A stretch of DNA of 63,986 bases, the filler included, from Folioceros fuciformis (Eukaryota): assembly GCA_049999805.1 (NCBI GenBank). It is 14 parts of 14 records of this genome, joined end to end, with 100 filler letters (N's around TTAATTAATTAA, not from the genome) between each part and the next. Parts side by side here need not be neighbours in the genome. Positions count along the whole stretch, not along the records: positions 12,985 to 20,745 come from JBNGIO010002144.1; 13 more parts are not named here. One strand, given 5' to 3'. The first letter of the stretch is position 1; each line of letters starts with the position of its first letter. Below are positions 3,088 through 36,339 of the stretch, piece by piece. The notes beneath the pieces are model-generated. The model was not told the origin of the DNA. It did no database searches and worked only from the letters and a program-made list of their open reading frames with translations. A program made the translations under genes and the position numbers.

Positions 3088-3187
3088 NNNNNNNNNNNNN
3101 NNNNNNNNNNNNNNNNNNNNNNNNNNNNNNNTTAATTAATTAANNNNNNNNNNNNNNNNNNNNNNNNNNNNNNNNNNNNNNNNNNNN
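3088..3187. other. Artificial contig linker (44N-TTAATTAATTAA-44N). Others start at 5826, 9300, 12885, 20746, 24837, 29214, 36368, 41618, 44158, 56195, 60382, 62723
   Basis: Identical 100-bp structure 13 times; the 12-mer gives stop codons in all six frames. Confidence 0.98.
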
Positions 3188-5542: not shown

Positions 5543-6413
5543 CAGGTCCTAGACCAAGCAGGGACAGACCACAAGAGCTCATGAAGAGAGGACCTCCAAG
5601 AGCTCACAAAGAGATAGACTGGCTTCCAAAAGTGAATGACTCCTTCTTCCTACAGGCTCACCTGATCTTATAGGAGCCTCTCTCTCTCTCTGACTTCACC
5701 TCTCTCTAACTTGAGAAATATTATTTTAATAGCCTATCCGGCTGTCACCAGCCACTTATTTAGACTTCTAGCACAACCTGCCACCAATGAGCTCCTGGCC
5801 CTACCACCACAAGGATCTACCACCTNNNNNNNNNNNNNNNNNNNNNNNNNNNNNNNNNNNNNNNNNNNNTTAATTAATTAANNNNNNNNNNNNNNNNNNN
5901 NNNNNNNNNNNNNNNNNNNNNNNNNAGGGTTGAGTTGCAGATTTTGGAAGTGGAAGTGTTGAAGTGAGGAGTTGAGCTGAAGTGAGGGGCTGGAGGGTGA
6001 AGTGAAGTGCTGAAGTGAAGGACTGAAGTGCTGAAGTGAAGGTCTGAAGTGCTCAAGTGAAGTGCTGAAGTGGTGGAATGAAGTGTTGGAGTTGGAGTGA
6101 GGAGCTAGCTGAAGTTGAGGTTCTCGTTCAGCTGCGGAGGTAGCTAGCACTAGGTGCTAGAGTTGGAGGCCAGACTTGGGGCTGGAGCCTCCTCTTAGCA
6201 CTGAAGTGATTCATACTTAGAGCTGGAAATGAAGGCTGAAGACAATGCTGGAGTTCTCATTTTGTTGAGGCTGGGGTTGGTGTTGTGGTAGGAGCCGAAG
6301 ACAGGACCGAGACTTCTGACCTATTGCTGTAGCACTTGGTATATGCTAATAGATAGGGTGAGATTAGGGAGATGTAGGTGACCTTGACATTAGTTCACTC
6401 CCTTGGGAGCGAA

Positions 6414-7812: not shown

Positions 7813-9399
7813 AGCTCCCGCCGCCGCTCGCCTCCCTCACAGGTCTCCCGCTTTTAGAAACCCTAACCACACATAACCGTTTTTTTTTTTTTTTCCTGGA
7901 CATGCCAATTCACCATTGAATCCTAGTTATCTTCACCTCTCAAGACTTTGTAGATCTCAATGTAATTCTCCTAACAAGCTCACCAGTTAACTTCCTTTAT
8001 ACCAAGCTTTTATTACCTTCTTCATCTTTGCAACATAAATCTCACCCATAGTCTTCTTTGCTTAAGTACCTCTTCATCTCAAGTCCCTCTGTTAAATAAG
8101 TTTGAGACAAACAACAAAAGCCACCATCTATTCCTCTATCAACTTTCTCCCATCTTTAATTGTCTTTCTAAAGGCCTGTATCAAGCACTTCAACTTTGCC
8201 TCTCAAGTTCTCTCTAAAAGGGTTTGGTTCTCTCTAGTGTTTAACTTGAGACTAACACATTTATCATCAAACTCCACTTTGGAACTAACATTTATGGACC
8301 ATCACTACAAAGCAACTAAAAACAATTCTAAGACCCTTTAGCTCCAAGGTATTTATATATTTATGTACTCCAAGGTATTTATATATTTGTGTACTTTCTT
8401 CTCTTGAATCCACACAAGTGTCAATTCTTTTGATAGTGACAAGTTTTAAGATATTAGTATGATGATGCTCTGTGTCACGCCATCACAACGCTTTCTTATG
8501 CAGCAACATGTACAAATGCTGATTGGTAACACAAAATCTTTGATTCAATTGTTCAGTTCACTACAAGCTTCTCGGTTACAATTGCACATTGAAGACACTT
8601 AGTGCATTCCTGCTCCTCGAGCTTTCCAAGCGAACTATTAAAAGAATGTTCGATCATTCTTTCCTCATCACTATATACCTACACCATTTCGTTACCAACC
8701 ACCTGGATGATCATTCCCAAACCGTTATCAACTATCCACAAAGTTAACCACCAAAAACCGTACTCTCCAACCATTCCTTCGTGAGAACTTTTGCTTGTCA
8801 ACTGTTTCTTTAGTCAAAACGTAAGGGATTTACCCTTTCTGCAAGCATATTTATCTCAAGTAAACAGCTTACGCAGTCGCGACCTGCACACCAAGTTCAC
8901 ACAGATGCAAAACTCTAACAGACTTTCTAAGACATGACAGGATATACTTTGATACATGAGAGTTAGAGGTAGACAGTGAGAAGTCTAGCATTGAGACATA
9001 GCTATGGAGGGCTTGAAGAGCAAGCTCATCAGATTGAGTCTAGGGCAATAGCCAGTGGGGCATAGATCGCCAGACTCTTTTGTAAGTATCTGGAACAAAG
9101 AGCAGCACCTAGAGGAGATGTTCTACAAGTCATCAGTGGACGGCGGGCTACTTGGAGCCTAGAGGAGGTGTTCTGCAAGTCATCAGTGGACGGCGAGCTG
9201 TTTGGAGCCTAGTGCTGAGTCATGTGAGGTAATCTATTTGGAGCCTAATGCTGAGTCATGTGAGAGGTGATCTATTTGGAGCCTAGTGCTGAGTCATGTN
9301 NNNNNNNNNNNNNNNNNNNNNNNNNNNNNNNNNNNNNNNNNNNTTAATTAATTAANNNNNNNNNNNNNNNNNNNNNNNNNNNNNNNNNNNNNNNNNNNN

Positions 9400-10659: not shown

Positions 10660-12175
10660 ACTTCCAAGATTACCTTGTCATGAAGTGCTACTTTTACTGA
10701 GCTCACTTCTCCTCATTTTGATCTTGAAGTAACACGACTGTATGCGTCAGAACCATTCTCCACAACATAAGACTTGTTTGCTGGTCTAGATGTAGAACAG
10801 ACTCAAGTTCCTTTTACTTACCCGGATTCTGATGGTGAAGTATTGATTCTGGCTGATCTTGATGGTGGACGAGTTGCAATTGATGGTTCGCAGGCACAGG
10901 ATGCCCAACCAGCTATAAATCCTGCCAATCAAGATGACGACATTCGGTCAATTCAATTTGAAGACTCAATCAAATATGATGATTTGGTAGTAGAGGGGGT
11001 TCGTCAGGAAGTTGTGAATGAGGAGGATTTAACTGAAACTGACGTAGTAGCTCCTGTGGAAGTCCCTGAAGTTAAAACTTCTTGCTCTCCAGTGCAAGAG
11101 CTCAGGTCTCGGGACAACTGGCTTGAACCTCCATATCAAGCCCATGATTTTCGTAGACATGGAGCACATGTATCAGATCTTGATGTCCCAGATGTACGAC
11201 CAGACCCACAGAGTTATTCAGAGGCTATGTCAGGACCTAATGTTGAACACTGGAGAGTTTCCATTGATGATGAGTACAACTCGTTGATGAAGAACGGCAC
11301 ATGGGAACTTGCAGACCTTCCCCTTGGACGTAAGCCAATTACCTGCAAATGGGTTTTTAAAAACAAGCTTAAAGCTAATGGCACTATATCTAGATACAAG
11401 AGCAGACTTGTAGCTAGGGGATTCTCACAGGTTCCAGGAGTAGATTTTGGAGATACATTCTCACCTGTGGTCAAGCCACCTTCCGTCAGAATCTTACTTG
11501 CCCCTGCTGCCGAGTTTGATCTGGAGCTTCATCAAATGGATGTTTGTACGGCCTTCCTGCATGGAGAGCTTGAGGAGGCCCTGTATATGGTTCAACCTGA
11601 AGGGTTTTCAGTCAAAAGTGGCCTCATAAATTTTGTAAACTATTGAAGACAATCTATGGCCTAAAACAGAGTCCGAGAGCATGGTACAAACGTATCACGA
11701 AGTTTATGATTCAGTCTCGTTTCCTACAATCCTCGGCTGACTCAAACGTGTTTTACTTAGCTGAATCTGGCTCGTTTGTGATTCTGGCTCTGTATGTTGA
11801 TGACGCCATCCTCCTCAGGAACAGCATGTCTCAACTAAATACTGTTAAGGCTCTTCTGCGCAGTGAATTTGGGATGACGGATCAAGGCCCTCTTCGAATC
11901 TGCTTGGGCATACAGATTTTAAGAAACAGACAGAATGGTACCATAGTACTTCACCAAACTAAATATTTAAAGGAGATCTTAAAGCATTTTTACCTTGATG
12001 AAACTCAACCGGTGTCCACTCCCTTCGTCGTTGGTGAAAAGCTCACTGCAGATCAATTCCCAAAGTCTGCAGAGGAGGAAATGGAAATGGCCTCTGTCCC
12101 TTATGCAGAGGCAGTTGGGTGCCTAATCTTCTTGGCTAACTGGACTAGGCCTGACATTAGCTTCTCAGTTAGTGT
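10660..12175 (+). mobile_element. Ty1/copia pol remnant (INT-RT linker and RT)
   Basis: DPQSYSEAM...EYNSLMKNGTWELADLPLGRKPITCKWVFK; HQMDVCTAFLHG; IYGLKQSPRAW; LYVDD; TRPDISF. Confidence 0.95.
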
Positions 12176-12884
12176 AGTAGTGTTTGAGCAGGTGATTGCC
12201 CGCTATGGCTGTCCCTTGGAGTTGGTGAGTGATCGAGGCACACATTTCGTCAACGAGGTTTTCACTCACCTGGCAGAGCACTTCAACGTACAACACCGAT
12301 GAACGACCCCTTACAATCCGAAGGCTAATGGTTTGACAAAGAAAGCAAACGAACTCCTGTGCCAGATACTCAACAAGTTGACAGTGGAATATGCCTACGA
12401 CTGGGACCTCAAGCTTTATTTGGCACTATGGGCGTACAAGATAGCAGAAAGGATTACAACGCAGAGGACGCCCTAGTACCTCACTTATGGGCATCACCCG
12501 GTGACGCCAGTGGAATTTGAAGTTCCGACCCTGCGCATCTTGAGGGAGAAACGAATGTCAGTGGAAGAAAGTCAGCTGGAGAGCCTGGTCAGTTTCGTGA
12601 GGCACACTGAAAACAGGGAGCAGGCACTAGAGGCAATGTAGGAGATGCAAGCCAAGAGGAAGGAGTGGCACGATCGCAAGCTGAGGAAGTAGGATTGGGT
12701 GGGACCTAGAGATTTAGCCCTGCTGTATGACAATAGGTATATGCATTTTCCGGGAAAGTTGCATCTGAGTTGGATGGGACCATTCCAAGTAGTTGAAGTT
12801 TTCGACAAAGGCTCCATTCAGTTGCAGCAGATGGATGGGCAGCCACTGCCAACTAGAGTCAAAGGTTGGCGAGTGAAAAAGTAC
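12176..12884 (+). mobile_element. Ty3/gypsy integrase core and C-terminus, degenerate
   Basis: VIARYGCPLELVSDRGTHFVN...TTPYNPKANG...GKLHLSWMGPFQVVEV (GPY/F motif). Confidence 0.92.
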
Positions 12885-13085
12885 NNNNNNNNNNNNNNNN
12901 NNNNNNNNNNNNNNNNNNNNNNNNNNNNTTAATTAATTAANNNNNNNNNNNNNNNNNNNNNNNNNNNNNNNNNNNNNNNNNNNNGCGCAAACTTCTTTAG
13001 CCCAAAACTTTGTGGGCCCATGAGAGAATGGGTCTGTGCTGATTTCTTCATCAGCGTCTGGCAAAGACCCAAGGCCATTCACTCT

Positions 13086-13700
13086 CTACATCATGTATGT
13101 CGTGCATCGTATATCGATGTCCATCGCCTCAACATGCCTCCCCCTCTGAATAGCAGCATGAAGGAACAATCCGGATCCTGCGCAAGCATCCACAACCCAG
13201 TCTCCTTCAACCGAAAACATGTTCACTAGCATTCCCATCAACCCCAACGGCTTATGATATGGGGAGACGACCATCGAATCAACCGAGTGAAAAAGATGTT
13301 TTTTCACGACAGCCCCATGCCTTATCACTCTCGGCAGAAGAAATCCCTGATTCGCAAATAAGGCTGCTTTGGTGGTATGAGCTTCCGAGTGGACTGCACT
13401 TCCAACTATTAGGTACTCCACAGTCTCTACTGCCCCTGCATTTGGAGGAATGTTGGTCTTTTCCCAAACCAATGTTTGTATGGTGCCTTTCTTACACCAT
13501 GGCCTAAGTGCCTCTCTCGCCTTTGAGATGAGGTCAACCCCATGCATGAGGACCACTCGATAAACATTGCTACTTGTGCATTCAGAAAACCCCTTAATCA
13601 TGTCTTCAAGGTCCTCGCTAGTCAACTGCCTGTCATAGTCATGTCATATGAGACCATGAGGCAAATCAACGAACAATAGGGTATAAGGTCTCTTTACCAG
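13086..13700 (-). pseudogene. N6_N4 DNA methyltransferase domain (beta order: catalytic motif IV before SAM-binding motif I)
   Basis: DLPH(G) is in frame with ORF 13086-13625 across a single TGA at 13644-13646; HKP...VVDACAGSG motif. Confidence 0.88.
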
Positions 13701-13963
13701 AAATCCGCTCATCTCCAGAACGCTTCTCTGCATCACTTGATATTTTGTTTTTTGGTTGCTGTTGGGGACTCTGAACTCTGACAAACCAGCATCCATATCG
13801 GCGTTTGCTAGTTTATGCTTCTCCTCTTCTAATTGTTTCTAGTTCCTTGCTGAGTACGCGTAATCCTAGAACGGCTTGGGAAACAATTCCAGGTCGTTTA
13901 TATCTACAGGTTTCTACCAACAAATATCTTCATCAGCAAACTCTGTTACTTTCATTAGTCAAA

Positions 13964-14003
13964 GTGGTTGGAGTGCGCCGGTCGTCTAGCGCACTCCAAC
14001 CAC
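13964..14003. repeat. Intronic hairpin, 15-bp perfect stem, containing the 22-bp palindrome variant
   Basis: GTGGTTGGAGTGCGC-(CGGTCGTCTA)-GCGCACTCCAACCAC. Confidence 0.85.
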
Positions 14004-14744
14004 CTAACCATAGAAGTTGGACAGGATTCATGAAGCAATTGAAAGAAAACTTACCACTTTTGCAAAGGCCGTCTGGAATCGAAGAAGATTCGCGTCTTCA
14101 ATGTGCTTGGGGTATATTTGCTCAGTTTCTTCGAAGGTTGCGCATTTTAGAGCTATCTGGAACGCATGCTGTATCAGGTGAATCTTCTTCCTTTTGCCCA
14201 CCTCTGCGTCCATGTCCTTTAGTTGAAGCTTCCCCTGTCTGACCTTCTGGGTTACTGCGATGAGCATCTCCTCCCCTTTTGCACTTGCTGGAACTCCTTG
14301 AAAGGCCCCTCAAGGCCTGCCCTGCATTGCGGTAACCTTTTTTGTGGACTCATCAGCCATAGGGGTGCTATTGGAAGCTATGCCAGCTTCCCCTGGTTTC
14401 CTCTTTGCTTTCGCCCGCTTCTTCGTGCCTGTGCTCCCTCCTGCTACCTGTTCCGGACGCTCCTTCCTCTCCCACATCTTAAAAATCCTGTCAACATTTT
14501 CTCATAGGACTCCACTGCACCTTGCCACCCGATATGGTATTGTCTGCCTAGCTACCATCTTGTATACCTAGTCAGCATCCCTTGGGTCACCTGCCTCATC
14601 CGTCCTCCAGCAACCTGTAGAGATTAAACTTCCACTTCACTGGTGGCTTCTCGTCCAGTCCATGGCTCATGTAGAAAATATCCAACTTGTCATGGATGTA
14701 TCTTACTTGCTTGATGAAGCCCATCCTCTTCCGTTTGTCTGCAA

Positions 14745-15140
14745 AAACATTGTGATCTACTGCGAGGACTCGCTTTTCCTCATCCGTCAGGCCTGCATAA
14801 ACATGCCCTTCCATCCACTCGTATTTGTCCTTTGTTGGGTACATCTGATGCTTTTGCAACCCTAAAGCTTTTGCATAGCTGCGAAACAATGGTTGCCCCC
14901 AAGCACTCCCATCTGGTAACCCTACGCTGTGATCTTCTCCAGCAAAACATCTTCTTTCTTCGAACCCTGTTTCGAATCAATCATGCATAGGAGAGGTAAA
15001 ATACCTTCCTTCACAGACCCTGTCTGCATCTGCCTGACCCGGTACTTCATCCAGGCTTTGTCAACCTCACGAATCTATGCATCCGCTGTTATATAACTTA
15101 TAGGGTGGAGCATATCCACATGAAGATCAAATGTCGTCGA
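14745..15140 (-). pseudogene. ParB/Sulfiredoxin-like N-terminal domain
   Basis: GGNH-C at 14886-14900 (TGT could be deaminated CGT, giving GGNHR), followed by VYxGLTDEExxxLAxxHN. Confidence 0.7.
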
Positions 15141-15918
15141 GTGGATCCTTTTTGCATGCGCTTTTCTTCGAACAACATAGAGCTAGTCCTCATCCTGCAC
15201 AACCCTCTCCATCCGTTCAACGTCTGTCTCTACTGTTTGGGGCGGCTCGTCCTCGAAAGTAGGCCCTTGAGCCTGCCGCCTCTGTTTCTGCCTAGTAGAA
15301 GCCTCGTTGATAGGCCCTACCGACCTGCTCTTCCTCTTCAGGGGTGAAGCTGCCACTGAACCACATCAGCTGTTACATCCGATGTCCACGACAGGAAACC
15401 AGACTAGACCAAATTGCAAACCGATTAGCAAGATATGCACCTGTGGCTCTTTTTTGAGACCTCGCAGGAGGTCGTGGCTGTCTTCTTCTTCCTTTGGGCT
15501 GGGGCGCCGGTAGGCCGGCGCACCGTGTTCTGCTTCTTCCTTGGTGGCGTCACCTCAACGGGCGATTCCTCTTCTTCTTCCTGTTCATCGTGTGAGCCTC
15601 TTCCAGCATCCAGTGCCTCATTGAGGTTGTCTTCGGTGGAGGAGTAACCACCCATCTCCTTCTCTTGGTCACTGCTTAGCTCCTCCACCTCACGCAGTTA
15701 GTCTTCCGACAGCTCTAGCTGCATGCGCGGCATCTCCACCGGCCTCTTCGTCACCCTTCCTGTGCTAACACCAAAATCTGCGAAGGTCGCAATTCGTTGG
15801 CGCTCTCCGGCAATCCTGGATGCTAGGGCTTGGTTCTTCAGGACGCAATCCGCACACAATCGCAAGACAGTTTGACAGAATTGTTTGCCTCCCTGTTACA
15901 CCCACAAGATGCAAGTAA

Positions 15919-15958
15919 TTAGGGTTTAGGGTTTGCTGGGTTAATGAGCCTATATAAG
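15919..15958 (-). promoter_or_regulatory. Putative promoter of the ParB-MTase gene (TATA-like element followed by telo-boxes)
   Basis: CTTATATAGG, then AAACCCTAAACCCTAA on the - strand, about 200 bp upstream of the reading frame. Confidence 0.45.
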
Positions 15959-16018
15959 TAAGCAACAACAACTGGGATAATTAACTATTGGGTTAATAAA
16001 CTGAAATAAATGATTAAG

Positions 16019-16633
16019 CTAATCATATACTAACATCTTGCACATTCAGACAATCTGTGTTTCGTCTTCCACGCCATCAACGGATGCACAGAGAATCCAC
16101 CTAGGCCTCCTTCCCTCATTGTCCGGCAAGCCTTGGAAACCGTTAGTCCACAGAGCCATGAGCGGCACTCATGGCAAATTGTAGTCTTCTGGCTCCTCTT
16201 CGATCACTAAAAACCACTCTTTGTCTGTGTTGAACCTTTTGGCAAGGGTGTCTTCAAGTTTCTTTAGCTTCAAGCGCCCAACAAAGTTGTACGCATTTGG
16301 AATATTGGGGTTCTGACTACCACCATTGCTGCCACCCTGAGTCACATTCACAGGCACATGGTTAACATGAACCTCACTAGCTAAGCTGTTTGAGGCACGA
16401 ACGCTCCCTCCTGAATTGTCTTTCCTCAATGCGAGAGCTGTTGGCTGTGGTGTAACATCTCCTACTGTGATCACTTGTCTCCGCTAGTTTTCTCTCTCGA
16501 CAATAAGGCTAGATGCAGCGCAAGCTAAAGCTTTCGCTCCCTGTCGTGGTTTCTTCAGCCTTGATGGTGCCTCCAATACTTCCATATCAATGGCCGCATT
16601 TAGTTGCTTGTTGCTTTGCCAGCCAGCTGCCAT
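16019..16633 (-). pseudogene. Small accessory ORF (~204 codons, three in-frame stops), possible C-terminal SAM-like helical domain
   Basis: ATG at 16633 is in frame with ORF 16169-16474 and continues to TAG at 16019; FVGRLKLKKLEDTLAKRFNTDKEWFLVIEEE. Confidence 0.5.
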
Positions 16634-16934
16634 CTTCGCCTGTGCGTGAGAGGAAGTCAACGAGAAAACTTCAGAAGACTAGAGCTGATGCAGAAGCACT
16701 GAGGAATGAATTAAGCATTCAATGACAAGATTTGAAGTCCAACTGTGAAGTTGAATGTGTGTTGCCTGAAATAGGCAGAGTGTTTGAACAACGTCCTTTG
16801 CATTTATGCTAGAACAACGATTAAAGGCGTTGTTCCCGACAAACAACAGCTACTTGATTTGGTGATCAAACGTTCATATAAAAAAGGCGGCTTAATTATG
16901 CCAGCGTAACCTGTATTCAATGAATTGGTGAGTG

Positions 16935-18210
16935 ATGGTAGAATGCATCTTGCAAGGAAGCTCCTTTGCGATTAATCAGTGCAACATTGGCATGGATTGG
17001 CAGGCTTCTTCCTCAGGCGACATGGTGCCTATGAAAACATTGGAGTTCAATTCTCAAGGTAGGCGACAACTACGGTTGAAGACTGGCATTTGTTTTTTGA
17101 AGTTGAAAGTCTGATCTTCTTTGTTCGCGTCTTGCTGCTTTGTTCCCGAAGATTCGGAAGGAATCGACATCGACTTCCGACCATCTCTTGTACGTCTAAG
17201 TCTTCTGGATGGCATCCATACTCCGGCAAGCCCATTGCGAACCCAGTATCCTTTCACGCCAGCAACCAAGAAAACAACACCTCTGAAACGGAATGCGGAT
17301 CGCACAATCTTGGGCGAGGACTTTGATGATTCGGATGTAGAAGGAATTGCGAGTGGACATCAAGTACCGGGAGAATCGACCGGGGAGCACTTCTAGCCCG
17401 AAGCCAAAGGAGGGGATGTCATGGCCGTAGACTCTATAAGGACGACATGCATATCGTCCCGAAAAACATACAACCTGAAATCATCATCCGAGTCCTTGAT
17501 TGAAGTTCGTGGAGATCATCGACGCAGTCGGAAGAAAAAAATCTCGACTGTACCTGAGGAAAAGTGCTTTGAGATCCGCATTTCTGTAGATTACCTCAGA
17601 CTATGTTGTGCAAAGCAGTGTCTTAGATCCTTAGGTAAACCAAGCTTTCGAGATTTGAGATACCAATTTCTAAACCTGTGCAGGACAGAGCAAGAAATGT
17701 TTTTGCAGACCCTGTTTGATGTCAAGCGTACTTCATATGGATGCTCGACAGCGGTGGCTTTTCTCATTGGATCTGTTGAGATACGCTGTTGTTGGGATGC
17801 CTTTAGACGAGTTTTCTGTATCGGTGCGAACAGGTACGAGGCAACAAAAGAAAGAGCTTTGGATAACATTATGTGGGTGGGCTCTGTCCATGCAGAAAAG
17901 CGCACCCGGGACCACGCTATTGTTGCATGTGTTTGGATGGATCAATTATTTTGCCTCCTTGCAGAACGCATGCCAAACATTGAAGTGTACCATCTTCCCG
18001 ACTCGTACACAAAAGAGGAAACTTTTATGGAGTACAAGCAGCAAATGCAACGAGCAGAATAGTATAGTGTGTCTTACTCTTATTTCTGTCAATTGTGGGC
18101 TTCACATTTCTACAAGGTGCAAATTCCGAAGACCAACAGATTTTCGCTCTATATAATCTCGGATTACCTGAAAAGGAACATTAGAGCAGAGTCTAATAAG
18201 AAGAAACAAG
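16935..18210 (+). mobile_element. DNA transposase N-terminal region (Sola-like/DUF7869-type), pseudogenised and truncated by an LTR insertion
   Basis: Single frame across ORFs 16932-17114, 17121-17396, 17421-18062 and beyond. CCAKQC, RCCWDAFRRVFCIG, WM..AERMP..YHLP..Y, VSYSYFCQLWASHFYKVQIPKTNRFS. GTATGT donor at 18211; TATA-like element at ~16876. Confidence 0.62.
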
Positions 18211-18253
18211 GTATGTGAGCGCATTTTTTCAGTTACGTTTCAGGTAGGCATTT

Positions 18254-18446
18254 GAAGTGCGTCGGTCGATCGGCGCACTTCGCTCCATCCTTCCCTGATA
18301 AGTGCACTGGTTGACCGGCGCACATTTTTCTTCCCATTGATGTTGAGAGTGCGCCGGTCTACTGGCACACTCCCCCTGTTTTGCATCCTTTAGCTTTTCT
18401 TGTGACTGCTCTGTGGCAGGTGTGCGCCGGTAACCCACCAGTTCAC
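18254..18446. repeat. Cluster of 22-bp palindromes (consensus GTGCGCCGGTCGACCGGCGCAC)
   Basis: Copies at 18257-18278 (20/22), 18302-18323 (19/22), 18349-18370 (19/22) and a half copy at 18422-18431. Confidence 0.85.
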
Positions 18447-18484
18447 ACACTTTTTCCTTATTCTCATGTGTAGGTCTTTGCTGT

Positions 18485-19630
18485 TGTGGAGTTAAAATAT
18501 GGTACCTAGGGGTACCGCGAGGTCCAAACAAGCCCTCTATGTCGTTGTAGCTCTGGGATTCAATCCCAAGGGAATGATTTGTGTTAAACTACACAGGTTA
18601 GCATCTAAAGTCAAGTAGCACCTAAAGCTCGACTGACTCACACGCACACGTCCAGTGCTCAGACCTTACCAAGCCCCCTTACTTCTCCCACCAGATGACT
18701 CCTCGACCACCCGGTCACCCCAGGGACTACCTTCCCCTAGACTACTCTTGGTTGCCCAATGGGCTACCCCCGTTGCCTTTCGGGCGACGGTCGCCTGACA
18801 GTCTACCACTCGTGGGTCCCACTCTCTCTCTCTCTCCCTCAATTCTCTCTCTCTAGGATTTTCTCTTCCTCTAGGTCGTTCCTTCCCGACTGATTACCTC
18901 CTGCCCGTGCATCCCCTTTGGCGCTTCCCTTCCTTGGTTCACCACAAAACCGCCCTACTCACCTCATAAGCAAGCGCACGCACACATGAACAACAACAAT
19001 CTATTAGAGGCCTTCCACCCGCGGGATCTCACACCTTAGATACACCCCCTACGGTCTCCATTCAGCTTCTTCCCAGTCTCTCCAGTCTCATTGCGACCAG
19101 TCACTCATACACACCACGTCTCGTTGCACCCCACACACATTACCCACCTCGCCCCCGGGGTTTCCCCGGCTTTGTTCTCTCTTACCCCACTGCTCGGTCA
19201 CTCGCTCCTCCTCCTTCTCACACACGCGCACCCCCGTGCTCTCCTTTCTCTAGTTCTTCAATCTTCTTTCTCAGTGATGCCCCCGCTTGGGCTCCAATTA
19301 ACGTTGAGGAATGATGAGGTACTGGAGCTAAGAGAAGAGGAGTCCCTTCCACTCCGCACTCACGGATTCGGCTCCGACACCCGCACCACCCCACGTGACC
19401 ACCTCGAGGATAGCTGGGGAGCTTCTCTCCCACTCGGCGAGGCTCCTTCTCTCGATTCGTCCCTGGACCTGATCACGGAGCGCCCACCACCTACACCCGC
19501 ACCCCAGGTTGCTACGTGCGCTCGCTTGCCTGGACCTCCTGTCCAGCAACGGCCATCGCTAGGTCCCTGCAAGGTCGACTGTTCGGCTGGTTCTTGCTGA
19601 TTTCTTAGGCCTCCAAACCGGCCTCTTGTA
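18485..19630. mobile_element. LTR family B (left end TGTGGAG; right boundary approximate)
   Basis: 18485-18585 is the reverse complement of 10560-10659. Confidence 0.6.
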
Positions 19631-19760
19631 CACGGTGATGGCAGTTTTTTCCGCCATAAAGTTTGTCAGGCAGGGGAGCCGCGCTCTTAAATTCTGAGCG
19701 ACTTAGGTCCAAATAAAGCACGCTAAAAAATCCTATTCTAGCCTGCATTTACTATCGCCG

Positions 19761-20745
19761 TTACCCATGCCGCTGGCGGCTTCCTCCTGGCCTTCGCGTG
19801 TCACCCCTTGCTGCCCCTCCTCTTGCTCTTCTGCCCCTCCGTTGGTCCGGCACATCCTCCCAGAGGATCTCCACATCATTGCTGCTGCTGCTGGACCTAG
19901 CTGGCGGCACAGGTGGGTCCCGCCGCTGTGGTCCACCACTCCTCCTCCTTCTCTGGTTGCTGAGGACAGCCACAGGCCCCCATTCTTCCCAGCGCTGGGC
20001 CTCCTCTTCCGTTAGTTCCTCCAGAACTGCCTCCTCATAGTAGTGGGGCAATCCTGTCACCCACCATCTGTAGTGGTAGAGTCCCAGACGCGTCCTCAAC
20101 TGTAGGACGTAGCCCAACGTCCCTCCTGTGCCCATACGTACATACAGAAATAGCCTTGCTCTTCCCCTTCACTCTCTCTGGCCTCATCCCGCTCCCGCTT
20201 GTATCTGTCAGCCAACTTTTGAGTCTGCTCCACGGCGGCTATCTCCATATGCCTTGGCCATTTCCTGTTGCATCTCCAGGTTAGTCTCGTGAGCCTCCCT
20301 CCCCTGAGCTAGCAGGGTCCCCTGTTGCTCTTTCAGCGCCTGCAATTCAGCCCTCGCCTCGCGCGCCTCATCCTCGGCTTGAGCCTTCTCCCTGTCTAGG
20401 ACCCGCTGCTTCTCCTCCAGCAGCTACCGCGCCATCTCCGACTCCGCCAGTTGCCTCCTTGCTTCAGCCTCTCGCTCACGAGCCTTCTCCTCCTTTCCCC
20501 AAGCCTCGGCCTCTCGCTCCGCTTGTACACTTAACCGGGTCAGGGCCCTAGCAGCCTGATCCAGGAGGTCTGCTTGGGCTTGCACCATCGCAGCAGTCAG
20601 CTCGGGTAGGTCCACCTCTTGCACCCCTCCTGTGCCCATTCCTGTCGCCGTGATTTGTCTGCCCAGGAATTCTCGCAACTTGTCCAGGTCCCCCACCTGC
20701 AACCTGTCTCTCTGAGGCCTGCACTTGAAAATGTCCTTCCACCTT
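19761..20745 (-). pseudogene. Coiled-coil accessory ORF of an LTR retroelement
   Basis: E/Q/A/R-rich heptads; EAHETNLEMQQEM..QKLADRYKRERDEA is homologous to 27511-28026. Confidence 0.6.
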
Positions 20746-23420
20746 NNNNNNNNNNNNNNNNNNNNNNNNNNNNNNNNNNNNNNNNNNNNTTAATTAATTA
20801 ANNNNNNNNNNNNNNNNNNNNNNNNNNNNNNNNNNNNNNNNNNNNCAAGGAGAGGTCCGCCCACACGCTTCCCGCCTTCTCGCGCGCACAGCAGAGCAGA
20901 GCAGAGCAGAGCAGAGGGGCCGCAGAGCAGAAAGCAGAGCAGAGCAGAGCCGAGCGGCGCAGGAGCCAGCAGCAGAAGCAGCGGAGCAGGCAGCCAGCCA
21001 GCCAGCCAGAACAGCGCAAGCTGGAGAAGAGAGAGGGGAGCGCCACAGCACAGCTTACAGGCACGGAGGCACAGGCAACAGGTCAGGTCCTGGTAAGCAA
21101 GCGAGGCACGGAGGGAAAGGAAAGGAAGCAGCCAGGGAAGGGCGAGAAGGGAAAAGCGAGGCGTGTGCCCAAGTGCAAGTGCAAGCAAAGCAAGCCCGGC
21201 CCAGGCCGGGGGCCAGAGCCGGGGCCCTGGACACCCTCGTCCCACTGCGCATCAGAAGCTCTGCCCCTGACTCTGTCGCAGCAGAGAGAGAATGCGGAAA
21301 CGGCTACAGTCATCCCATCCGGCTTCCCTTCCTCATCAGCCACCGCCGATTATCGTCCTTTTCCCCCAAGAGAAAGAGAGAGGAAATGGGCTGGCTCGGC
21401 TCGGCTCCCGCTCGCTTCTCTGCGTCTGCCCCTTCCCTGCCAATGCTGGCTGCTCTTCCCACAATTAATCCCCCTCCCATCTGTCTAATAAATATCCAAG
21501 AGGTGCCTTCTCCTCCAAGCGTGTGCGTGCGTGCGACCTTGTGCTCTGCGCCACACCCCCTTTCCTTTCCTTTCCTTCCCCCACCGCTCACACCATCGCA
21601 CATACCCGATCACAACCATCCACTCTTCAACTCACAAACAAACAAACAAAAGGCAGAAAGGCAGATATGAAGGAAAACGTGGAACAAACACCCATCCCAA
21701 CCATATTAAGAACAACCCAACTCAAAAGAAGGAAGAGAGACAAGGCATGTCCGCACAAGGCTGGAATCAAATCCACTCCAATGGGTCTCTTTCTCACTCC
21801 CTCCATGGATGTGCAGCACCGGGAGCCCAAGGTACTTGCTTCAAATGTTGCCGTGACAACATCATCACGCGAAGAATGTTTCACGAATAAGTACCTCTAT
21901 GACAGGAAACTGACGAACCATACGGCCTCATGTGTGCGTGACATGCTCCCATGCTTCCATGGTACCTAGGACAGTTCAGGAGGTCACAAGGAAGATATGG
22001 TAGACAAACGGACCCAATACAACCGACTCTTGCACAACTGACAACGGTTGTCTCTTCTTTCTCAATTGACAATAGCTCTCCTCTCCTGCAACTCCTGCCT
22101 GCCTACCAGACTACCTCTCGAATGAATGAATACATGTGCTCCAACTGCAAATTGCTTTCTCTGCATGAATGAAGGTTGTCCTAGCAAGCGCTTGTAACGT
22201 CTTTGTTCCTCGACAGACACGGTACTAAGGCCTCATTGTCTCTGTTCCGCATTGTCTCTATTCTTGGACAGACAAGGTACCCAAAGCTTCACATGATGCA
22301 TGACGTGGTGCTCTTGGGGACAATGTTCAAATATCCTTGCTTCGAGAGTCAGAGTCACGCGGTTGGACAACCAATGCCCAGACCAAGTGTAGAAAACGAC
22401 AAACGTGAGCCCCTAAGCAAGGACACAATGAGCTCTACACCTAGAGCTGGTTTGCAAGGACAAGATAATAGGTGAAAGCAGCATCACATCTAATCAAAGA
22501 AAGATTATTAATAACTATTTAATCAATGATGGATTAGCATGAGTGACACTCGGCCTAAACATACATCGTTGTTATTGAAGAGCACAGATGTATGCAGCAT
22601 ATACCCCGCTCCTATAACTACATTAAACATCATAATGACAAGATATCATTATTTAAGAGTTTTAGAGATAGCCTTTTAATTTTGATCATGCTGTTTGATA
22701 TACGTTATCTCGGACAAGTTGTATGGATAAGCATGGACCATGCTTCTCTTGGGAGGGCCGGGCCGGGCTGGGCTGGGCTGGGCCATCCTCCCGGCTAGCT
22801 GTGAGAAATTCGGATGCGATGGATCTACGATCTAGAATCCGGCAGGGGCGAGGGCGATGGCGAGGGATAAAATACGTATGGGACGATATCCAATACGTTG
22901 CGCAGGTAGGTAGCGGTAAAAGAAATGTGGTGGAAGGGGGCCTGGGAGCTTCTAAGAAATATCGTATGACGTGTGGAAGCACAGATGAAGCAAAGGGGGG
23001 GCTCCAACACAGCGCAGTGCGCACGCTGGTGGTCGCAAGGACGCCGGCAAGCAGCGTGCCATGGTCGGTGCGCGTGACCTGTGATGGCCAAATCCGGTTG
23101 CCGCTGCCTGGACGCGATCAAATTTAGCCCGCCAGCAGCCACATCATGCATGCTTCAACAATTGCAGCCTCGAAGCCCCTTCCCTTCCCTTTTTTCTGCT
23201 GCTGTGTCTTCTCCCCCCCTTGGCGTCGCGTCGCCATCTCCACCCGGTCCGTAAGCGCGTCCTCGTCACTTGCCGCAAACCCAGTGGCGAGCAAGTTGCC
23301 CGCATCACGGCTCTCCCGCTGGGAGGCCCGGGTGAACGCGGCGCGCCGTGCCGTGCCGCGCCGCGGAGTGATGTGGTGCGGTGTGGCGTGGCGTGGAGTG
23401 GCGGAGACTAGACATCGGGA

Positions 23421-33180: not shown

Positions 33181-33347
33181 AAATTGCCCTCTTCAGGTTT
33201 CGTTCTATCTTTGGGGTAGCTAAGGTTTCTATATCTTTTTCAATCACATATATCACTTTGAATGTTGGGCAAGAAAAGCTGGTATGCATCTATGGTAGGT
33301 ATTTCAGGTACAGAGGCCTCACCCGGGTAGAGATAGGTTTAGACTCG

Positions 33348-34313
33348 ATGGCTGCCGCGGGCGGCGGAGGTAAGACTGTGAGGAGTAGAGTGGACGACGA
33401 GCGTATCTCGAAGGCTGTAGATTCTCTGCTGAGATGGCTGGAGTCACAGAAATCGGGAGAGAAGGCGCAGCTGGTTGAGGATGACGAGCTCCTGTATGTT
33501 GTGGTGTCGATGAAAAAAGTACCGCAGGTGGCGCACACCAATCCGCATGCAATTCCACTGCCTCACCCGCTCATTCCCCTGGATGGTTCGAAAGAAATCT
33601 GCCTCTTTGTGAGCGATCGGAAGACGGGTCTGAAGCAGAAGGAAGCCAAGGACAGGGTTGCGCAGGAAGGAATACCTATTCAGAAGGTGGTAGCGCTGTC
33701 CAAGATGAAGAAGGACTACTTCGCGTTCGAGGCCAAGAGGAAGCTGTGTGGCTCGTACGACTTGTTCTTGGCGGATGATAGGATTCTCTCTGAGCTTCCC
33801 AAGTGCCTCGGTAGGACTTTCTTCAAGAAGAAGAAGCATCCTATTCCGGTGCGGTTGTCCAGGGGACAATGGAAAGAGCACATCAGGGCCGCGTGTGGCT
33901 CCGCCTTTTTCTATTTGGCGAGGGGGACGTGCAGTGTCATCAAGGCTGCCAAAGCGTCGCAGTCTAGGGATGAGATCAGGGACAACATACGAGCTGTTGT
34001 GGAAGGGGTAGCTCAGCTTATTCCTAAGAAGTGGTCCAACATCCAGTCCATTTTTTTGAAGACGTTGGGGTCCGTATCCCTTCCTTTGTATCAGGCAGGT
34101 CCGGACTTCCCATTGAAGATACAGGCCGTCAAGAAGTCCGAGTGCGAGGATTTGGATGCCCCGACGGAGGACTCGTCGCAGGAGAGCAAGTTGAAGGAGA
34201 AGAGGAGGGAGGGGAGCCAGTTGAGGGACAGCCAGGCCGCAAAGGACGTTGTGCTTTCGAAGAAAAGAAAGCAAGTTGATAGTTTTCGAGTGTCGAAGAA
34301 GAGTCGAACATGA
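33348..34313 (+). CDS. RSL1D1: Ribosomal protein L1p/L10e-domain protein (RSL1D1/CSIG/Cic1-like), intronless CDS
   Basis: IPLPHPL..EICLFV..KVVALSKMKKDY.AFEAKRKLCGSYDLFLADDRI...LGRTFFKKKKHPIPV...KKWSNIQSIFLKT..SVSLPLY; basic tail. Confidence 0.92.
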   Translation: MAAAGGGGKTVRSRVDDERISKAVDSLLRWLESQKSGEKAQLVEDDELLYVVVSMKKVPQVAHTNPHAIPLPHPLIPLDGSKEICLFVSDRKTGLKQKEAKDRVAQEGIPIQKVVALSKMKKDYFAFEAKRKLCGSYDLFLADDRILSELPKCLGRTFFKKKKHPIPVRLSRGQWKEHIRAACGSAFFYLARGTCSVIKAAKASQSRDEIRDNIRAVVEGVAQLIPKKWSNIQSIFLKTLGSVSLPLYQAGPDFPLKIQAVKKSECEDLDAPTEDSSQESKLKEKRREGSQLRDSQAAKDVVLSKKRKQVDSFRVSKKSRT

Positions 34314-34464
34314 TTCAAAATTGTGGGGGACGATCGGGTGGACTCTTACGTGCCGTTTTTTTTGTGAGTGGTTGTGTTTGGTGGAGACTCGGCTGCAAAG
34401 GGGTGCCTCATGTGCCGCGTCTTTTGAGGCGAGGCACAAGGCCCAAAAGTCTGCGGGACCATTA

Positions 34465-36339
34465 TCATTGCTTTTGTCTCGAGACGAGGTCCAGGCTCCA
34501 CAGAGGGACTGAATAGATTAGGATGCAAGGCAGGAGAGAACACGCGATGGATGAAACAAAGTAGGCGTAGGCACGCCAGGGCCTGTCTCCTTGATGCATC
34601 GTGTGCACCTCGACCACAACTGTGGAGACGGTGCTCATGCATCCCATGAGTCCAAGCTGCAGGGCTCCCGTCAAAAGGCTAGCATACCCACTGGCGGCCT
34701 GGAACATGGGCAAAGGCTAGCCGTGAGAATTAGGTACCCTAAACCCTTCAGGGTTGAGGAATAAATGGACATGAGGAGCGACGGTGGGGGTTTCTCGGCG
34801 CCTTACCACAACTTGCGCAGTGCCCAGGCTCGCTTCCAGCCATGACGCGATGACGTTGGCAAGAAGTGTACCAACAGGAAACCATTTAATCCAATGCTCT
34901 GGTCCGACGCCCTGGCCATTCAGCCGGGCAAGTTGCCACCTTGTCCAGACCCCGAAAGGTGCCACAATGCAAGCCATCCAGAGTTGTCTTTGATCCACGT
35001 GCAGCAGGGTGAGAAGCGTAGATGCCACCCACATTCCACCCCCTAGAAGTGAGAAGGATACAAAGAAAATCCATGTACGGGCAGGGTGGTCTTCTGCACT
35101 TCTTTGCAGCTTCCTCACATCCTTCTCAGGTGTCTTCCGTCGCCAACACTGAATGAGGGCTAACAATGCCCTCGAAGAGTCCATGCCGAAAATGAGACAC
35201 ATCCATGATAACTGCATACCTTGGATACACCAACACGAGGTCTCATCAAATTTCGTCGCCGCACAGAAATCAGCACCCCACCATCCCAATTCATGAGCGT
35301 GAAGAGGAATATACCAATGAGAATGCCGACAAAAGCATGGACCCAGCGGCCCCCCGTGAGCAGTTCAAGCATGTGCTGGTTCCAGGATGCAAACGTTGTG
35401 ATGCTGCCCATGAGTCCAGTTGATAGGCCGACAGCCAAGATCTCCGAGTAACTCGAAATATGCGCCTTCAAAGTGACTCCCACCCATCCCATAAAAAAGG
35501 ACCCAACCTGCGAAAGGCTAGAATAGCTGTAAACAACCATCTGAACAGCAACAGGTGAACCGCCGAATCCCGAACATTGCCATTACAGACCATGTTTGCC
35601 GGCAAATCAATGAAAAGCGCACTCTCCTTTCCAGTGACGTCGGCCACTTTGGGGCCAAACAAAGTTTGCAGTCCGAATCTTATGAGCACCTGCACTTGCA
35701 GCCAAAACCACGTGATTACGTGAAAGCATAGCTCAAGCTTGTCGTGCTACTGCTACTGGTTCATGCATCTGGTAAGGAGTACTATGCTACGTTCCACCCT
35801 ACAAAACGACCCTGTTCAGTTAGCAACTAATTTTGTTAACGAAAACCATTACGTTACCCCTAGCATCCCGAACACAGCAAGATGAGCCAGGGTCGATAGG
35901 TACTCAAGAACTGGCGACAACTCGCGTGTATCGGACCTGACAGGAAAGGCCGAGACTATGTCACTGCAAAGGACAGGAATTTGACATGGTCAAAAAAACC
36001 AAGAATGAGGCCAGCAAAAGGCGTCGATGCACACTTGGAGAGCCCTGTCCAAACCGCAGGTCGTGGTTGCAGAGGAGACGCCTTCTCAAGTGGTTGCTCA
36101 TCGTCCAGCTTACTGGACCGGACAGCCTTGTCTCCATCAGCGAACCTGGTTCGTTCAACGGATGGTCCGGCGTCGGATAATCCTCGCGCCAGGCTTGGCA
36201 GTGGAGGTGGCGCAGAGGCCCCGTTGCCTGTGGCTGGCCGTACCCTAGAGACGGGACCAGAAGAGTAACCTCCGTCGCTCCTGGAGTCGAGACGGCCAGA
36301 GTCGCCGGCAGTGGCTTCTAACTGATCCTCGTCGTCCAT
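34465..36339 (-). CDS. FEX: Fluoride export protein (two CrcB/Fluc domains), ~6 exons
   Basis: LAHLAVFGMLG|VLIRFGLQTLFG..DLPANM|VGSFFMGW..GLSTGLMGSITTFASWNQ..APFGVWTRWQLARLNG..WFPVGTLLANV..GLMGCMSTVSTVVVE; GT-AG introns. Confidence 0.93.

Follow-up and report, generated by a model that had tools for sequence, protein, structure and literature searches.

The window, meaning the whole 63,986-nt stretch of Folioceros fuciformis DNA that was analysed (assembly GCA_049999805.1, filler included), consists of 14 short contigs joined by N44-TTAATTAATTAA-N44 linkers. One of these, flanked by others, carries on its minus strand the remains of a gene with a methyltransferase domain. The copia reverse transcriptase at 10771-12302 and this gene are therefore on separate contigs. 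Domains encoded on the other contigs are MBD, WSD and copia reverse transcriptase. The gene-bearing contig ends only 23 bp past the last detected homology to the methyltransferase gene. Its features are:

12985..20745, no strand: the contig itself (7761 bp, GC 0.50)
13008..13913, minus: last exon-like block, with a linker, the whole beta-class methyltransferase domain and the start of the C-terminal tail
13089..13643, minus: open frame of 185 aa, the middle and SAM-binding half of the methyltransferase domain
13170..13190, minus: motif I, D-A-C-A-G-S-G, the SAM-binding loop (D217 and G221 invariant in alignment A1)
13248..13259, minus: Y-H-K-P, the (Y)QKP motif of the family (K196 and P197 invariant in A1)
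13644..13646, minus: in-frame TGA separating motif IV from the remaining domain; the family alignment has a variable loop at this place
13653..13667, minus: motif IV, D-L-P-H-G, aligned to DPPY of MboIIA and to DxPYG or DLPRG of the relatives
13914..14054, minus: intervening segment of 141 nt, GTAAGT...TAG, phase 0, probably a spliceosomal intron
14055..14600, minus: middle region, basic linker and helical part, homologous to P0010 residues 405-477 and to P0084
14599..14856, minus: latter half of the N-terminal domain (HVYAGLTDEEKRVLAVDHN...), sharing 51% identity with Adiantum P0020 over 39 aa
14865..15362, minus: basic N-terminal region and first half of the N-terminal domain (...VLGGNHCFAAMQKL, compared with GGGH[ST]REAR in relatives)
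18248..18437, no strand: cluster of four palindromes with core AGTGCGCCGGTC

Methyltransferase domain. The minus-strand ORF at 13086-13643 (185 aa, including the stop TAG 13088-13086) reads HDYDRQ...YHKPLGL...VVDACAGSG. As the initial annotation had proposed, motif IV lies upstream of a TGA and ahead of motif I: read from 13838 through TGA 13646-13644, the minus strand gives ...LLFVDLPHG...YHKP...VVDACAGSG, the stretch in frame before the stop being ...KRPYTLLFVDLPHGLI. In P0001, the translated protein of the window's copy, DLPHG occupies residues 58-62 and DACAGSG residues 217-223, which is the circularly permuted, beta order of IV before I. In the HMMER alignment, vDiPyG of the family profile falls on IDPPYN of MboIIA. 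Pfam PF01555 (N6_N4_Mtase) is matched at 30.1 bits against a gathering cut-off of 26.7 (E 5.9e-07), although just positions 159-211 of the 221 in the profile are matched. Scores of the relatives lie at 30-66 bits; Riccia P0023, at 20.6 bits, falls under the cut-off. A phmmer search of 1.84 billion representatives returned 75 proteins at E<=1e-3 (best 1.9e-32), and in the protein atlas PF01555 is present in 30/30 nearest clusters, so by sequence the match to a methyltransferase domain is well beyond chance. A word-index neighbour search with P0001 scored none of 268 candidates, and the same kind of search with alignment A5 found four proteins, all of the same clade or generic.

The fold agrees. 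An AlphaFold model of the window's domain (pLDDT 83.8, pTM 0.84) has its best Foldseek matches in CcrM (4.7e-13), RsrI (1.8e-11) and MboIIA (4.1e-11), followed by BceJIV, TTHA0409, PvuII and rotifer N4CMT (8s9m, 5.5e-10). The model of the full-length relative P0010 aligns to CcrM with Z 23.4 and rmsd 3.2 over 214 residues; a wide structure search with this 789-aa model covered residues 531-765. An RNA or protein methyltransferase as the best structural match would have pointed elsewhere, and the best matches (CcrM, RsrI, MboIIA, BceJIV, PvuII, N4CMT) are all DNA methyltransferases. The domain is thus, by sequence and fold, a beta-class DNA amino-methyltransferase of bacterial or phage type, which bears out the class first assigned to it.

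Its closest counterparts by both sequence profile and structure are bacterial beta-class N6-adenine enzymes. With CcrM, M.RsrI, M.MboIIA, M1.HpyAVI/DpnA-type enzymes and M.BceJIV the family shares fold, motif order, the (x)QKP motif and the DxxxGSG SAM loop. It differs from them in sequence (11-22% identity) and in motif IV, which is DPPY in the bacterial enzymes, D-L-P-H in the window and D-x-P-Y or DLPRG in the family; unlike theirs, the window's gene is eukaryotic, intron-bearing, multi-copy and broken. The A1 profile matches N6-adenine enzymes at 1.9e-12 to 1.2e-10, whereas confirmed N4-cytosine enzymes (1.6e-7 and 1.6e-4) come 3-8 orders of magnitude worse.

Extent and state of the gene. 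When P0010, P0008, P0022, P0020, P0003 and P0084 were used as tblastn queries, the gene could be followed from 15362 to 13008 across stops and frames, collinear with the full-length relatives. The last exon-like block was mapped by P0003 (E 1e-37), P0002, P0004 and P0010, and contains TAG 13868-13866, TAG 13841-13839, TGA 13646-13644 and TAG 13088-13086, the last of these premature because homology runs on to 13008. The middle region contains TAG 14570-14568, TGA 14504-14502 and TGA 14312-14310, and the region 14865..15362 contains TAG at 15185-15183, 15077-15075 and 14924-14922. One frame change lies near 14600, where other copies differ by an indel at 14606, and a second between 14865 and 14856. 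The initial annotation had described motif IV as hidden behind one stop; there are ten in-frame stops (7 TAG, 3 TGA) and two frame changes, which make this copy a pseudogene. The stops at 13868 and 14502 are private to it, since nearly all other copies in the DNA runs differ there. Being dead, this copy yields no protein and serves no function itself.

Intron-like segment. The segment at 14054-13914 contains a palindrome with a 16-bp stem. It is present in other genomic copies and absent from the relative P0084, whose single HSP (14564 to 13374, E 7e-34) has a 47-codon gap exactly over it; beyond that boundary, on its upstream side, the P0019 and P0003 ORFs part from P0084. The DNA runs cover the segment, with no joint across 14054-13914 among those listed. 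From these alignments it is probably a real intron, with an exon boundary common to two relatives. The upstream GT-AG intron of the initial annotation thus has a counterpart in an intron-like segment, which spans 14054-13914; 13913-13839 is homologous coding sequence. An introner-like origin of the 141 nt is conceivable, with an intron preferred. Origin from a MITE was considered and rejected, as there is no terminal inverted repeat, the hairpin is internal, and the boundary is common to P0003 and P0019.

Copies in DNA runs. Three DNA runs of the same organism yielded 562 (X1), 617 (X2) and 562 (X3) contigs aligned to 12985-16000, at 80-100% identity to the window's gene; these are Logan contig counts, which sum everything in a sample and are not a copy number. 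By identity, the X1 contigs divide into 56 at >=99%, 117 at 95-99%, 198 at 90-95% and 191 below 90%. All 30 of 30 bins of 12985-16000 are covered, and transitions dominate among the differences. So many short contigs over this range of identity indicate a high-copy, decaying repeat, whose multiple copies are seen here as short contigs. A fourth run (X4), possibly of RNA, aligned 0 contigs, a result that carries no information on expression. The presence of an intron argues for propagation at the DNA level and against retrotransposition.

Family and hosts. Eight of the 30 clusters looked up are named, and all eight come from streptophytes (Chara 4, Adiantum 2, Ginkgo 1, Riccia 1); further relatives are eukaryote-like metagenome and transcriptome records. 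Scaffolds carrying the relatives are 1-3.7 Mb in Chara and 0.8-3.5 Mb in Adiantum, and in Riccia the record is 51 Mb. Chara and Adiantum each hold several diverged paralogue clusters. The family is found in the nuclear genomes of Chara, Riccia, Adiantum, Ginkgo and the window's organism. Metagenome-contig pattern scans with A2 and P0003 found no member. Literature searches, which did not extend to the supplementary lists of PMC4738411 and of the preprint on the DAM family cited below, found no description of the family.

We consider it probable that what survives here is a decayed copy, no longer functional, of a gene that is repeated in high copy and encodes a protein with a beta-class methyltransferase domain. 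The intact gene would encode a protein of roughly 700-800 aa, ordered as a basic N-terminus, a GG[GN]H[ST]R domain, a helical middle and a C-terminal beta-class N6_N4 methyltransferase. For members with D-x-P-Y-G, the prediction is SAM binding by the conserved DxxxGSG loop and methyl transfer to an exocyclic amino group in DNA, most likely adenine N6. In the window's clade the base-stacking aromatic residue is replaced by Arg (DLPRG), and in the window's own copy by His. The carrier repeat may propagate at the DNA level.

The best-surviving of the other explanations, although we think it unlikely, is that the locus is a relic of an endogenised DNA virus (giant virus, polinton-like or virophage-like) that brought a phage-type methyltransferase. 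Megaviridae and Pandoravirus methyltransferases are among the best viral structural matches. Sperm are free-swimming in Chara, Riccia, Adiantum and Ginkgo alike, and also in the bryophytes from which giant-virus relics have been reported. However, viral proteins resemble the domain no more closely than bacterial ones do (12-20% identity), and an intron together with copies in the hundreds suits a cellular repeat better. Genes for a capsid, a polymerase or packaging are absent from the 7.8-kb contig. IMG/VR, scanned with four patterns, gave no family member: those from A2, P0040 and P0039 found none, and that from A3 picked up just two generic phage methyltransferases, matched at motif I, with no ParB domain (PF02195) in either viral record.

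Few amino-methyltransferases of prokaryote type are known from eukaryotic nuclei, and they have drawn much discussion: N4CMT, DN4MT1 and, in DIRS and LTR elements, the DAM domains. The last of these, DIRS and DAM-LTR elements, are the known transposon-borne adenine methyltransferases of eukaryotes, as described in a recent preprint (bioRxiv 10.64898/2026.05.21.726589), and like the present family they are prokaryote-type enzymes multiplied inside eukaryotic repeats. Membership in this retrotransposon-borne family would also fit the copia elements on other contigs of the window, yet it is very improbable. DAM enzymes carry an Asn-Pro-Pro triplet and are encoded with a reverse transcriptase or tyrosine recombinase, and the preprint reports DAM-LTRs to be absent from Streptophyta (bioRxiv 10.64898/2026.05.21.726589); the window has PF01555, motif IV before motif I and D-L-P-H, besides an intron. 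Fusion to a reverse transcriptase was found in 0/75 relatives, the exception being the chimeric gene model P0085, which starts integrase-like. Pfam scans of seven contig ORFs gave no hit to a transposase, reverse transcriptase or recombinase, and terminal repeats were likewise not detected on the 7.8-kb contig, so copy number is the one line of evidence that points to a mobile element. The transposon-borne origin proposed initially therefore holds as regards a high-copy repeat and lacks a mobility gene on the contig.

A host gene gained by horizontal transfer and still working as a writer of 6mA (or 4mC), its TGA read through or recoded, could account for the preserved fold and SAM loop, for the intron-like segment and for the intact ORFs of 288-446 aa in the related clusters P0002-P0004. 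For the window's copy it is already contradicted, and we give it hardly any weight: recoding of TGA was rejected because 7/10 stops are TAG, so that it would by itself leave the frame closed, and two frame changes, hundreds of diverged repeat copies and a motif IV lacking the aromatic residue count against it as well. Marchantia DN4MT1a/b and rotifer N4CMT are the comparable horizontally derived PF01555-type enzymes of eukaryotic nuclei. Those genes belong to the host, number one or two copies and have a demonstrated function, whereas the window's gene is a high-copy repeat. Motif IV of Marchantia DN4MT1 is TSPPY in the published account; the Ser-initiated form of DN4MT1 and N4CMT is thus not that of the window, which begins with Asp, and the family stands apart from the Marchantia enzyme, as had been supposed.

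Contamination of the assembly by a bacterium or phage, whose genomes are where this domain family is typically found, is already contradicted and practically out of the question, as the nearest relatives lie on large (Mb-scale) scaffolds of Chara, Riccia and Adiantum, the sequence is CpG-depleted (o/e 0.58), intron-bearing and heavily decayed, and DNA runs of the organism itself contain diverged copies by the hundred; the initial view of a eukaryotic locus stands.

Motif IV and activity. Among 39 alignment rows covering motif IV, D-[IVFAL]-P-[YF] occurs in 24, DLPRG in 6, DPPYG in 3, DIPHG in 2 and other forms in 3, with DLPHG in the window; Asp comes first in the window and in 37/39 rows. The window departs from the canonical (D/N/S)-P-P-(Y/F/W), with both the first Pro and the aromatic residue replaced. 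In the tree it joins the DLPRG rows (SH-aLRT 96), within a group of 17 rows to which Riccia, Ginkgo and Adiantum belong. Chara GBG66685.1 and P0010 are examples of members with DxPYG, and P0003 of one with DLPRG. The initial annotation had left the consensus between DLPY and DLPH; D-L-P-R-G is read in 6/6 clusters of the window's clade that cover the motif, and not DLPY. DLPRG in place of DxPYG means loss of the base-stacking aromatic residue in this clade.

The proposed source of 6mA thus fails for the window's locus, where such activity is excluded, and judging by motif IV it is doubtful for the clade. The DLPRG proteins are more likely to be catalytically impaired or re-purposed proteins that would bind SAM and DNA. 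Their Arg is conserved over six clusters that differ by >50%, which suggests function over decay, so that 'impaired' may be the wrong word; a changed substrate is possible. METTL14, the inactive partner of METTL3, offers an analogy of working mode only: the amino-methyltransferase scaffold is kept while the catalytic or aromatic residues of motif IV are lost. It belongs to the MT-A70 clade and is a second-tier structural match, METTL3/METTL14 chains aligning to the P0010 model at Z 12.9-14.1 compared with 23.4 for CcrM. According to Iyer et al. (PMC4738411), METTL14 representatives often have disrupted active-site motifs.

Streptophytes thus carry a beta-class family unlike DAM, multiplied as a repeat, with an N-terminal domain and an intron of its own, and with a subclade in which a conserved Arg takes the place of the catalytic aromatic residue. 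If intact members are active, they would be candidate 6mA writers in charophytes, bryophytes, ferns and Ginkgo; if inactive, they would be a new case of a methyltransferase fold turned into a non-catalytic DNA-binding module.

N-terminal domain. In the relatives GG[GN]H[ST]R follows a predicted strand and is followed by VYxGLTxxEA...HN, which may point to a ParB/sulfiredoxin-like domain; significant sequence matches are absent, with no Pfam ParB match in any relative, and a profile search of PDB sequences gave no ParB at E<=10. The model is of low confidence in this region (pLDDT 41-65). Phage and prophage fusions of a ParB-CTPase fold with N6_N4_Mtase, as described in PMC12704722, are similar in having an N-terminal accessory domain followed by a PF01555 methyltransferase. 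They align over 428-683 columns with the full-length model and 253-296 with the methyltransferase-only model, a weak match at an rmsd of ~20 A. The family differs in its ~250-aa helical region between the domains, in its streptophyte hosts and in having no significant ParB match. The best phage family is PHROG 67, 'DNA methyltransferase', which matches relatives down to 1.5e-27 and the window's protein at 6.3e-08.

A more speculative extension, to which we attach a low probability, is that the family is the signature gene of an unrecognised DNA-level selfish element with a ParB-like clamp, a methyltransferase-derived module and parS-like palindromes. The clamp would bind the AGTGCGCCGGTC-core hairpins of the element (18248-18437 and intron) as parS-like sites, and the methyltransferase module would either place 6mA on the element's DNA or, among DLPRG proteins, bind DNA together with SAM and transfer no methyl group; the hosts would be streptophytes with free-swimming sperm (Chara, liverworts, ferns, Ginkgo). 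If true, a phage partition and anti-restriction module would have been re-used to persist in a plant nucleus.

Elsewhere on the contig, the ORF at 17397-18062 gave 0/395 scored candidates in a word-index protein search, and within the window Rfam gave no matches at the gathering threshold. The AGTGCGCCGGTC core of the palindrome cluster recurs inside the intron-like segment, at 13964-13997, and all seven of its matches in the window fall on the methyltransferase-gene contig.

The window's 63,986 bases are 14 short contigs (1.2-11.9 kb) rather than one genome piece, joined by linkers that stop all six frames (N44-TTAATTAATTAA-N44 at 3088-3187, 5826-5925, 9300-9399, 12885-12984, 20746-20845 and eight more), so that any feature or 'neighbourhood' crossing a linker is an artefact. 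The methyltransferase (MTase) gene is on the fifth contig (12985-20745; 7761 bp, GC 0.50), where no transposase, reverse transcriptase or recombinase was found. Other contigs encode eukaryotic domains (MBD, WSD, Ribosomal_L1 and copia reverse transcriptase). The Ty1/copia reverse transcriptase left of the MTase locus (10771-12302, Pfam RVT_2) is on one of these and therefore says nothing about the surroundings of the MTase gene. A 109-bp repeat is common to the MTase contig (18475-18583; contig positions 5491-5599) and the copia contig (10562-10669; contig 4, 1163-1270), with 86% identity in opposite orientation.

Homology detected by tblastn with full-length relatives outlines a single collinear minus-strand gene at about 15362-13008, which runs beyond the contig end.

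15362-14865, minus: basic N-terminus and first half of the N-terminal domain (...VLGGNHCFAAMQKL vs GGGHCREARERL)
14856-14599, minus: second half of the N-terminal domain, after a frame change (HVYAGLTDEEKRVLAVDHN)
about 14600-14055, minus: basic linker and helical region, after a second frame change
14054-13914, minus: intervening segment of 141 nt, GTAAGT...TAG, phase 0
13913-13008, minus: MTase exon
13667-13653, minus: motif DLPHG
13646-13644, minus: in-frame TGA directly upstream of the open reading frame (ORF), preceded by ...KRPYTLLFVDLPHGLI
13086-13643, minus: ORF, HDYDRQ...SPYHKPLGL...WVVDACAGSG...TYMM
13259-13248, minus: YHKP
13190-13170, minus: DACAGSG
15185-83, 15077-75, 14924-22, 14570-68, 13868-66, 13841-39, 13088-86, minus: in-frame TAG stops
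14504-02, 14312-10, 13646-44, minus: in-frame TGA stops

The product of 14856-14599 is 51% identical over 39 aa to P0020 of Adiantum. The initial annotation had placed DLPHG in frame upstream of the ORF, with motif IV before motif I, and the coordinates (13667-13653, then 13190-13170) bear this out, the minus-strand order being DLPHG, YHKP, DACAGSG. Its picture of a motif hidden behind one stop gives way to ten in-frame stops in the homologous frames; seven are TAG and three TGA, so a single recoding could not open the frame. The TAG at 13088-13086 is premature, since homology goes on past it (SLPDADEEIS vs TLPDEDQEIG of the relative P0004). The locus is a dead copy.

It is also a high-copy repeat. 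When 12985-16000 was compared at >=80% identity with three DNA runs from one sample of the organism (X1, X2 and X3), 562, 617 and 562 short contigs matched, covering all 30 bins; these numbers count contigs in one sample and do not measure copy number. In X1, 56 were at >=99% identity, 117 at 95-99%, 198 at 90-95% and 191 at <90%. Differences to the window copy are dominated by transitions (e.g. C>T 85 and G>A 105, vs 19-31 per transversion type), and CpG observed/expected is 0.58 in the MTase gene and 0.33-0.78 across the window's contigs, which together fit methylated, decaying repeats. Run X3 had 189 G>A and 65 C>T, unlike X1 (105/85) and X2 (90/84); this strong G>A excess may be a library effect (strand-specific base conversion) and not biological. 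The stops at 13868 and 14502 are private to the window copy, because nearly all other copies carry another letter there, and five X1 contigs differ by an indel at 14606, where the second frame change lies.

The initial annotation also reported an upstream intron, which is real in essence (14054-13914) though it takes up less than the whole apparent gap: positions 13913-13839 are coding, contain two stops and are homologous to ...LPSTFQEHITKAKAW... of the relative P0003. The 418-aa ORF P0084, which belongs to the same clade, gives one HSP (14564 to 13374, E 7e-34) in which a gap of 47 codons falls exactly at 14054-13914. P0019 is identical to P0084 downstream of this boundary; upstream of it the P0019 and P0003 ORFs diverge, ending ...Q before RVRSVGNL, as would be expected of frames that read out from an intron ending in CAG. 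The DNA runs cover the segment, other copies vary within the acceptor, at 13916, and no joint across it was among those listed for the runs. We read the segment as a conserved spliceosomal intron, in which case P0084 would represent either a spliced transcript or a copy lacking the intron. The intron contains a palindrome with a 16-bp stem, one of several palindromes of ~28 bp with the core AGTGCGCCGGTC: one at 13964-13997, and four, in which the core recurs, clustered 4.3 kb away at 18248-18437. All seven core matches in the window are on the MTase contig (2.07 expected; none of 100 shuffles reached seven). Such palindromes might serve as binding sites for a protein or mark the termini of a small element. 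A 221-aa open frame (17397-18062, plus strand) lies head-to-head with the MTase gene; for this frame there was no Pfam match and no relative by word search of proteins. Its nearest atlas clusters are arthropod 'hypothetical proteins' (score 0.95), a weak recognition (2093, below the 2300 mark), and the nearest named cluster, DUF7869, scores only 0.76.

The 250-residue read-through protein (P0001, with X placed at the TGA) scored 30.1 bits against Pfam N6_N4_Mtase, above the threshold of 26.7. Among 1.84 billion representatives it has 75 relatives at E<=1e-3, of which 14 reach <=1e-10; the top match (1.9e-32) is 43% identical. Of these relatives, about 64 carry the family signatures, (Y)QKP together with W[VI]LD.C.GSG, nine resemble common HPTQKP-type enzymes of bacteria, and two are noise from low-complexity sequence; in the protein atlas, all 30 clusters nearest the ORF carry PF01555. 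The MTase domain was modelled with good confidence from a 14-sequence alignment, A1 (pLDDT 83.8, pTM 0.84). Its best solved-structure matches are all beta-class DNA amino-MTases, CcrM first (4.7e-13), with RsrI, MboIIA, M.BceJIV, TTHA0409, PvuII, M1.HpyAVI and rotifer N4CMT; METTL3 is far weaker. The model of a full-length relative, P0010, matched CcrM with Z 23.4 (rmsd 3.2 over 214 residues), BceJIV with Z 22.2 and MboIIA with Z 21.4, METTL3 and MTA1 reaching ~14. The proposed beta-class assignment therefore stands, with CcrM and not an RNA or protein MTase as best fold match. Scores of the A1 profile (1.9e-12 to 1.2e-10 for N6-adenine enzymes, 1.6e-7 for rotifer N4CMT, 1.6e-4 for PvuII) lean mildly towards adenine ancestry.

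DLPHG is motif IV, since the HMMER alignment sets vDiPyG of the family profile against IDPPYN in MboIIA. Among 39 rows covering this motif, 24 have D-[IVFAL]-P-[YF], six DLPRG, three the canonical DPPYG, two DIPHG (one from Ginkgo) and three other forms; DLPHG is the window's alone. In a tree of the 37 rows filled in >=150 columns (excluding 39 that were shorter or noisy), the window groups on a long branch with DLPRG rows P0002, P0003, P0004 and P0019 (SH-aLRT 96). The larger group in which this clade is nested (17 rows, support 91) includes Riccia, Ginkgo and Adiantum; lack of the aromatic residue is thus a derived state. The motif IV Arg is conserved across clusters differing by >50%, and we infer that a single transition separates the window's His codon (CAT) from one for Arg. 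Motif IV of amino-MTases contributes an aromatic residue that stacks against the flipped base, so DxPYG members are plausible adenine MTases. The DLPRG clade is more likely impaired or re-purposed, though its SAM loop is kept. The initial preference for 6mA is probably wrong for this clade, which has lost the aromatic residue, and moot for a dead copy.

Eight of 30 clusters looked up have organism names, all streptophytes: four from Chara braunii (GBG86584.1, GBG75370.1, GBG66685.1, GBG82070.1), two from Adiantum nelumboides (three proteins), and one each from Ginkgo biloba (Gb_37443) and Riccia sorocarpa (KAL3677677.1). The others are Logan, ENA or JGI records. Most named relatives are on scaffolds of 0.8-51 Mb, and the earlier view of the gene as resident in a eukaryote was right. 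Full-length members (P0010, 789 aa; P0022, 699 aa; P0011, 670 aa; and P0030, P0039 and P0040 from ENA) share one architecture: a basic N-terminus, a domain in which GG[GN]H[ST]R precedes VYxGLTxxEA...HN, a helical region and the MTase. The N-terminal domain may be ParB/sulfiredoxin-like, judging by the motifs of ParB proteins and by fusions of a ParB fold to N6_N4_Mtase, which are described as typical of phages (PMC12704722). ParB had no Pfam match in the relatives and no match among PDB sequences, model confidence is low in this region, and the full-length model's alignments to phage ParB-MTase proteins are longer than those of the MTase-only model but poor. The gene model P0085 (Adiantum MCO5614432.1) joins an integrase-like LTR-retrotransposon start to the N-terminal domain's second half and the MTase. 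Rather than a genuine fusion, it seems to be an annotation chimera from a region rich in repeats.

Marchantia DN4MT1a/b are described as having TSPPY, where the window has DLPHG, and as clustering with N4C enzymes (bioRxiv 10.1101/2021.02.12.428880), and are thus a different family. So is the retrotransposon DAM family, described as having an Asn-Pro-Pro triplet and travelling with a reverse transcriptase or tyrosine recombinase, its DAM-LTRs being reported absent from Streptophyta (bioRxiv 10.64898/2026.05.21.726589). None of the six eukaryotic acquisitions of this MTase group, as outlined by Iyer et al. (PMC4738411), has the window family's architecture or host range, and Rodriguez et al. 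report the rotifer enzyme as without eukaryotic homologues (PMC8885841). We found no description of the family in the literature, though supplementary lists may include members; it is apparently an undescribed variant of 'prokaryote-type MTase multiplied by eukaryotic repeats'.

Among the other contigs, contig 8 has an uninterrupted 376-aa frame (33183-34313, plus strand) with a full Ribosomal_L1 domain (E 1.7e-45), overlapped by a 357-aa frame on the opposite strand (33444-34517). Contig 11 has, on the minus strand, an uninterrupted 1364-aa frame with a WSD/DDT-type motif (46894-50988) and a 466-aa frame with a methyl-CpG-binding domain (54686-56086, E 1e-16), which look like parts of a single large MBD-WSD chromatin gene whose exons are very long.
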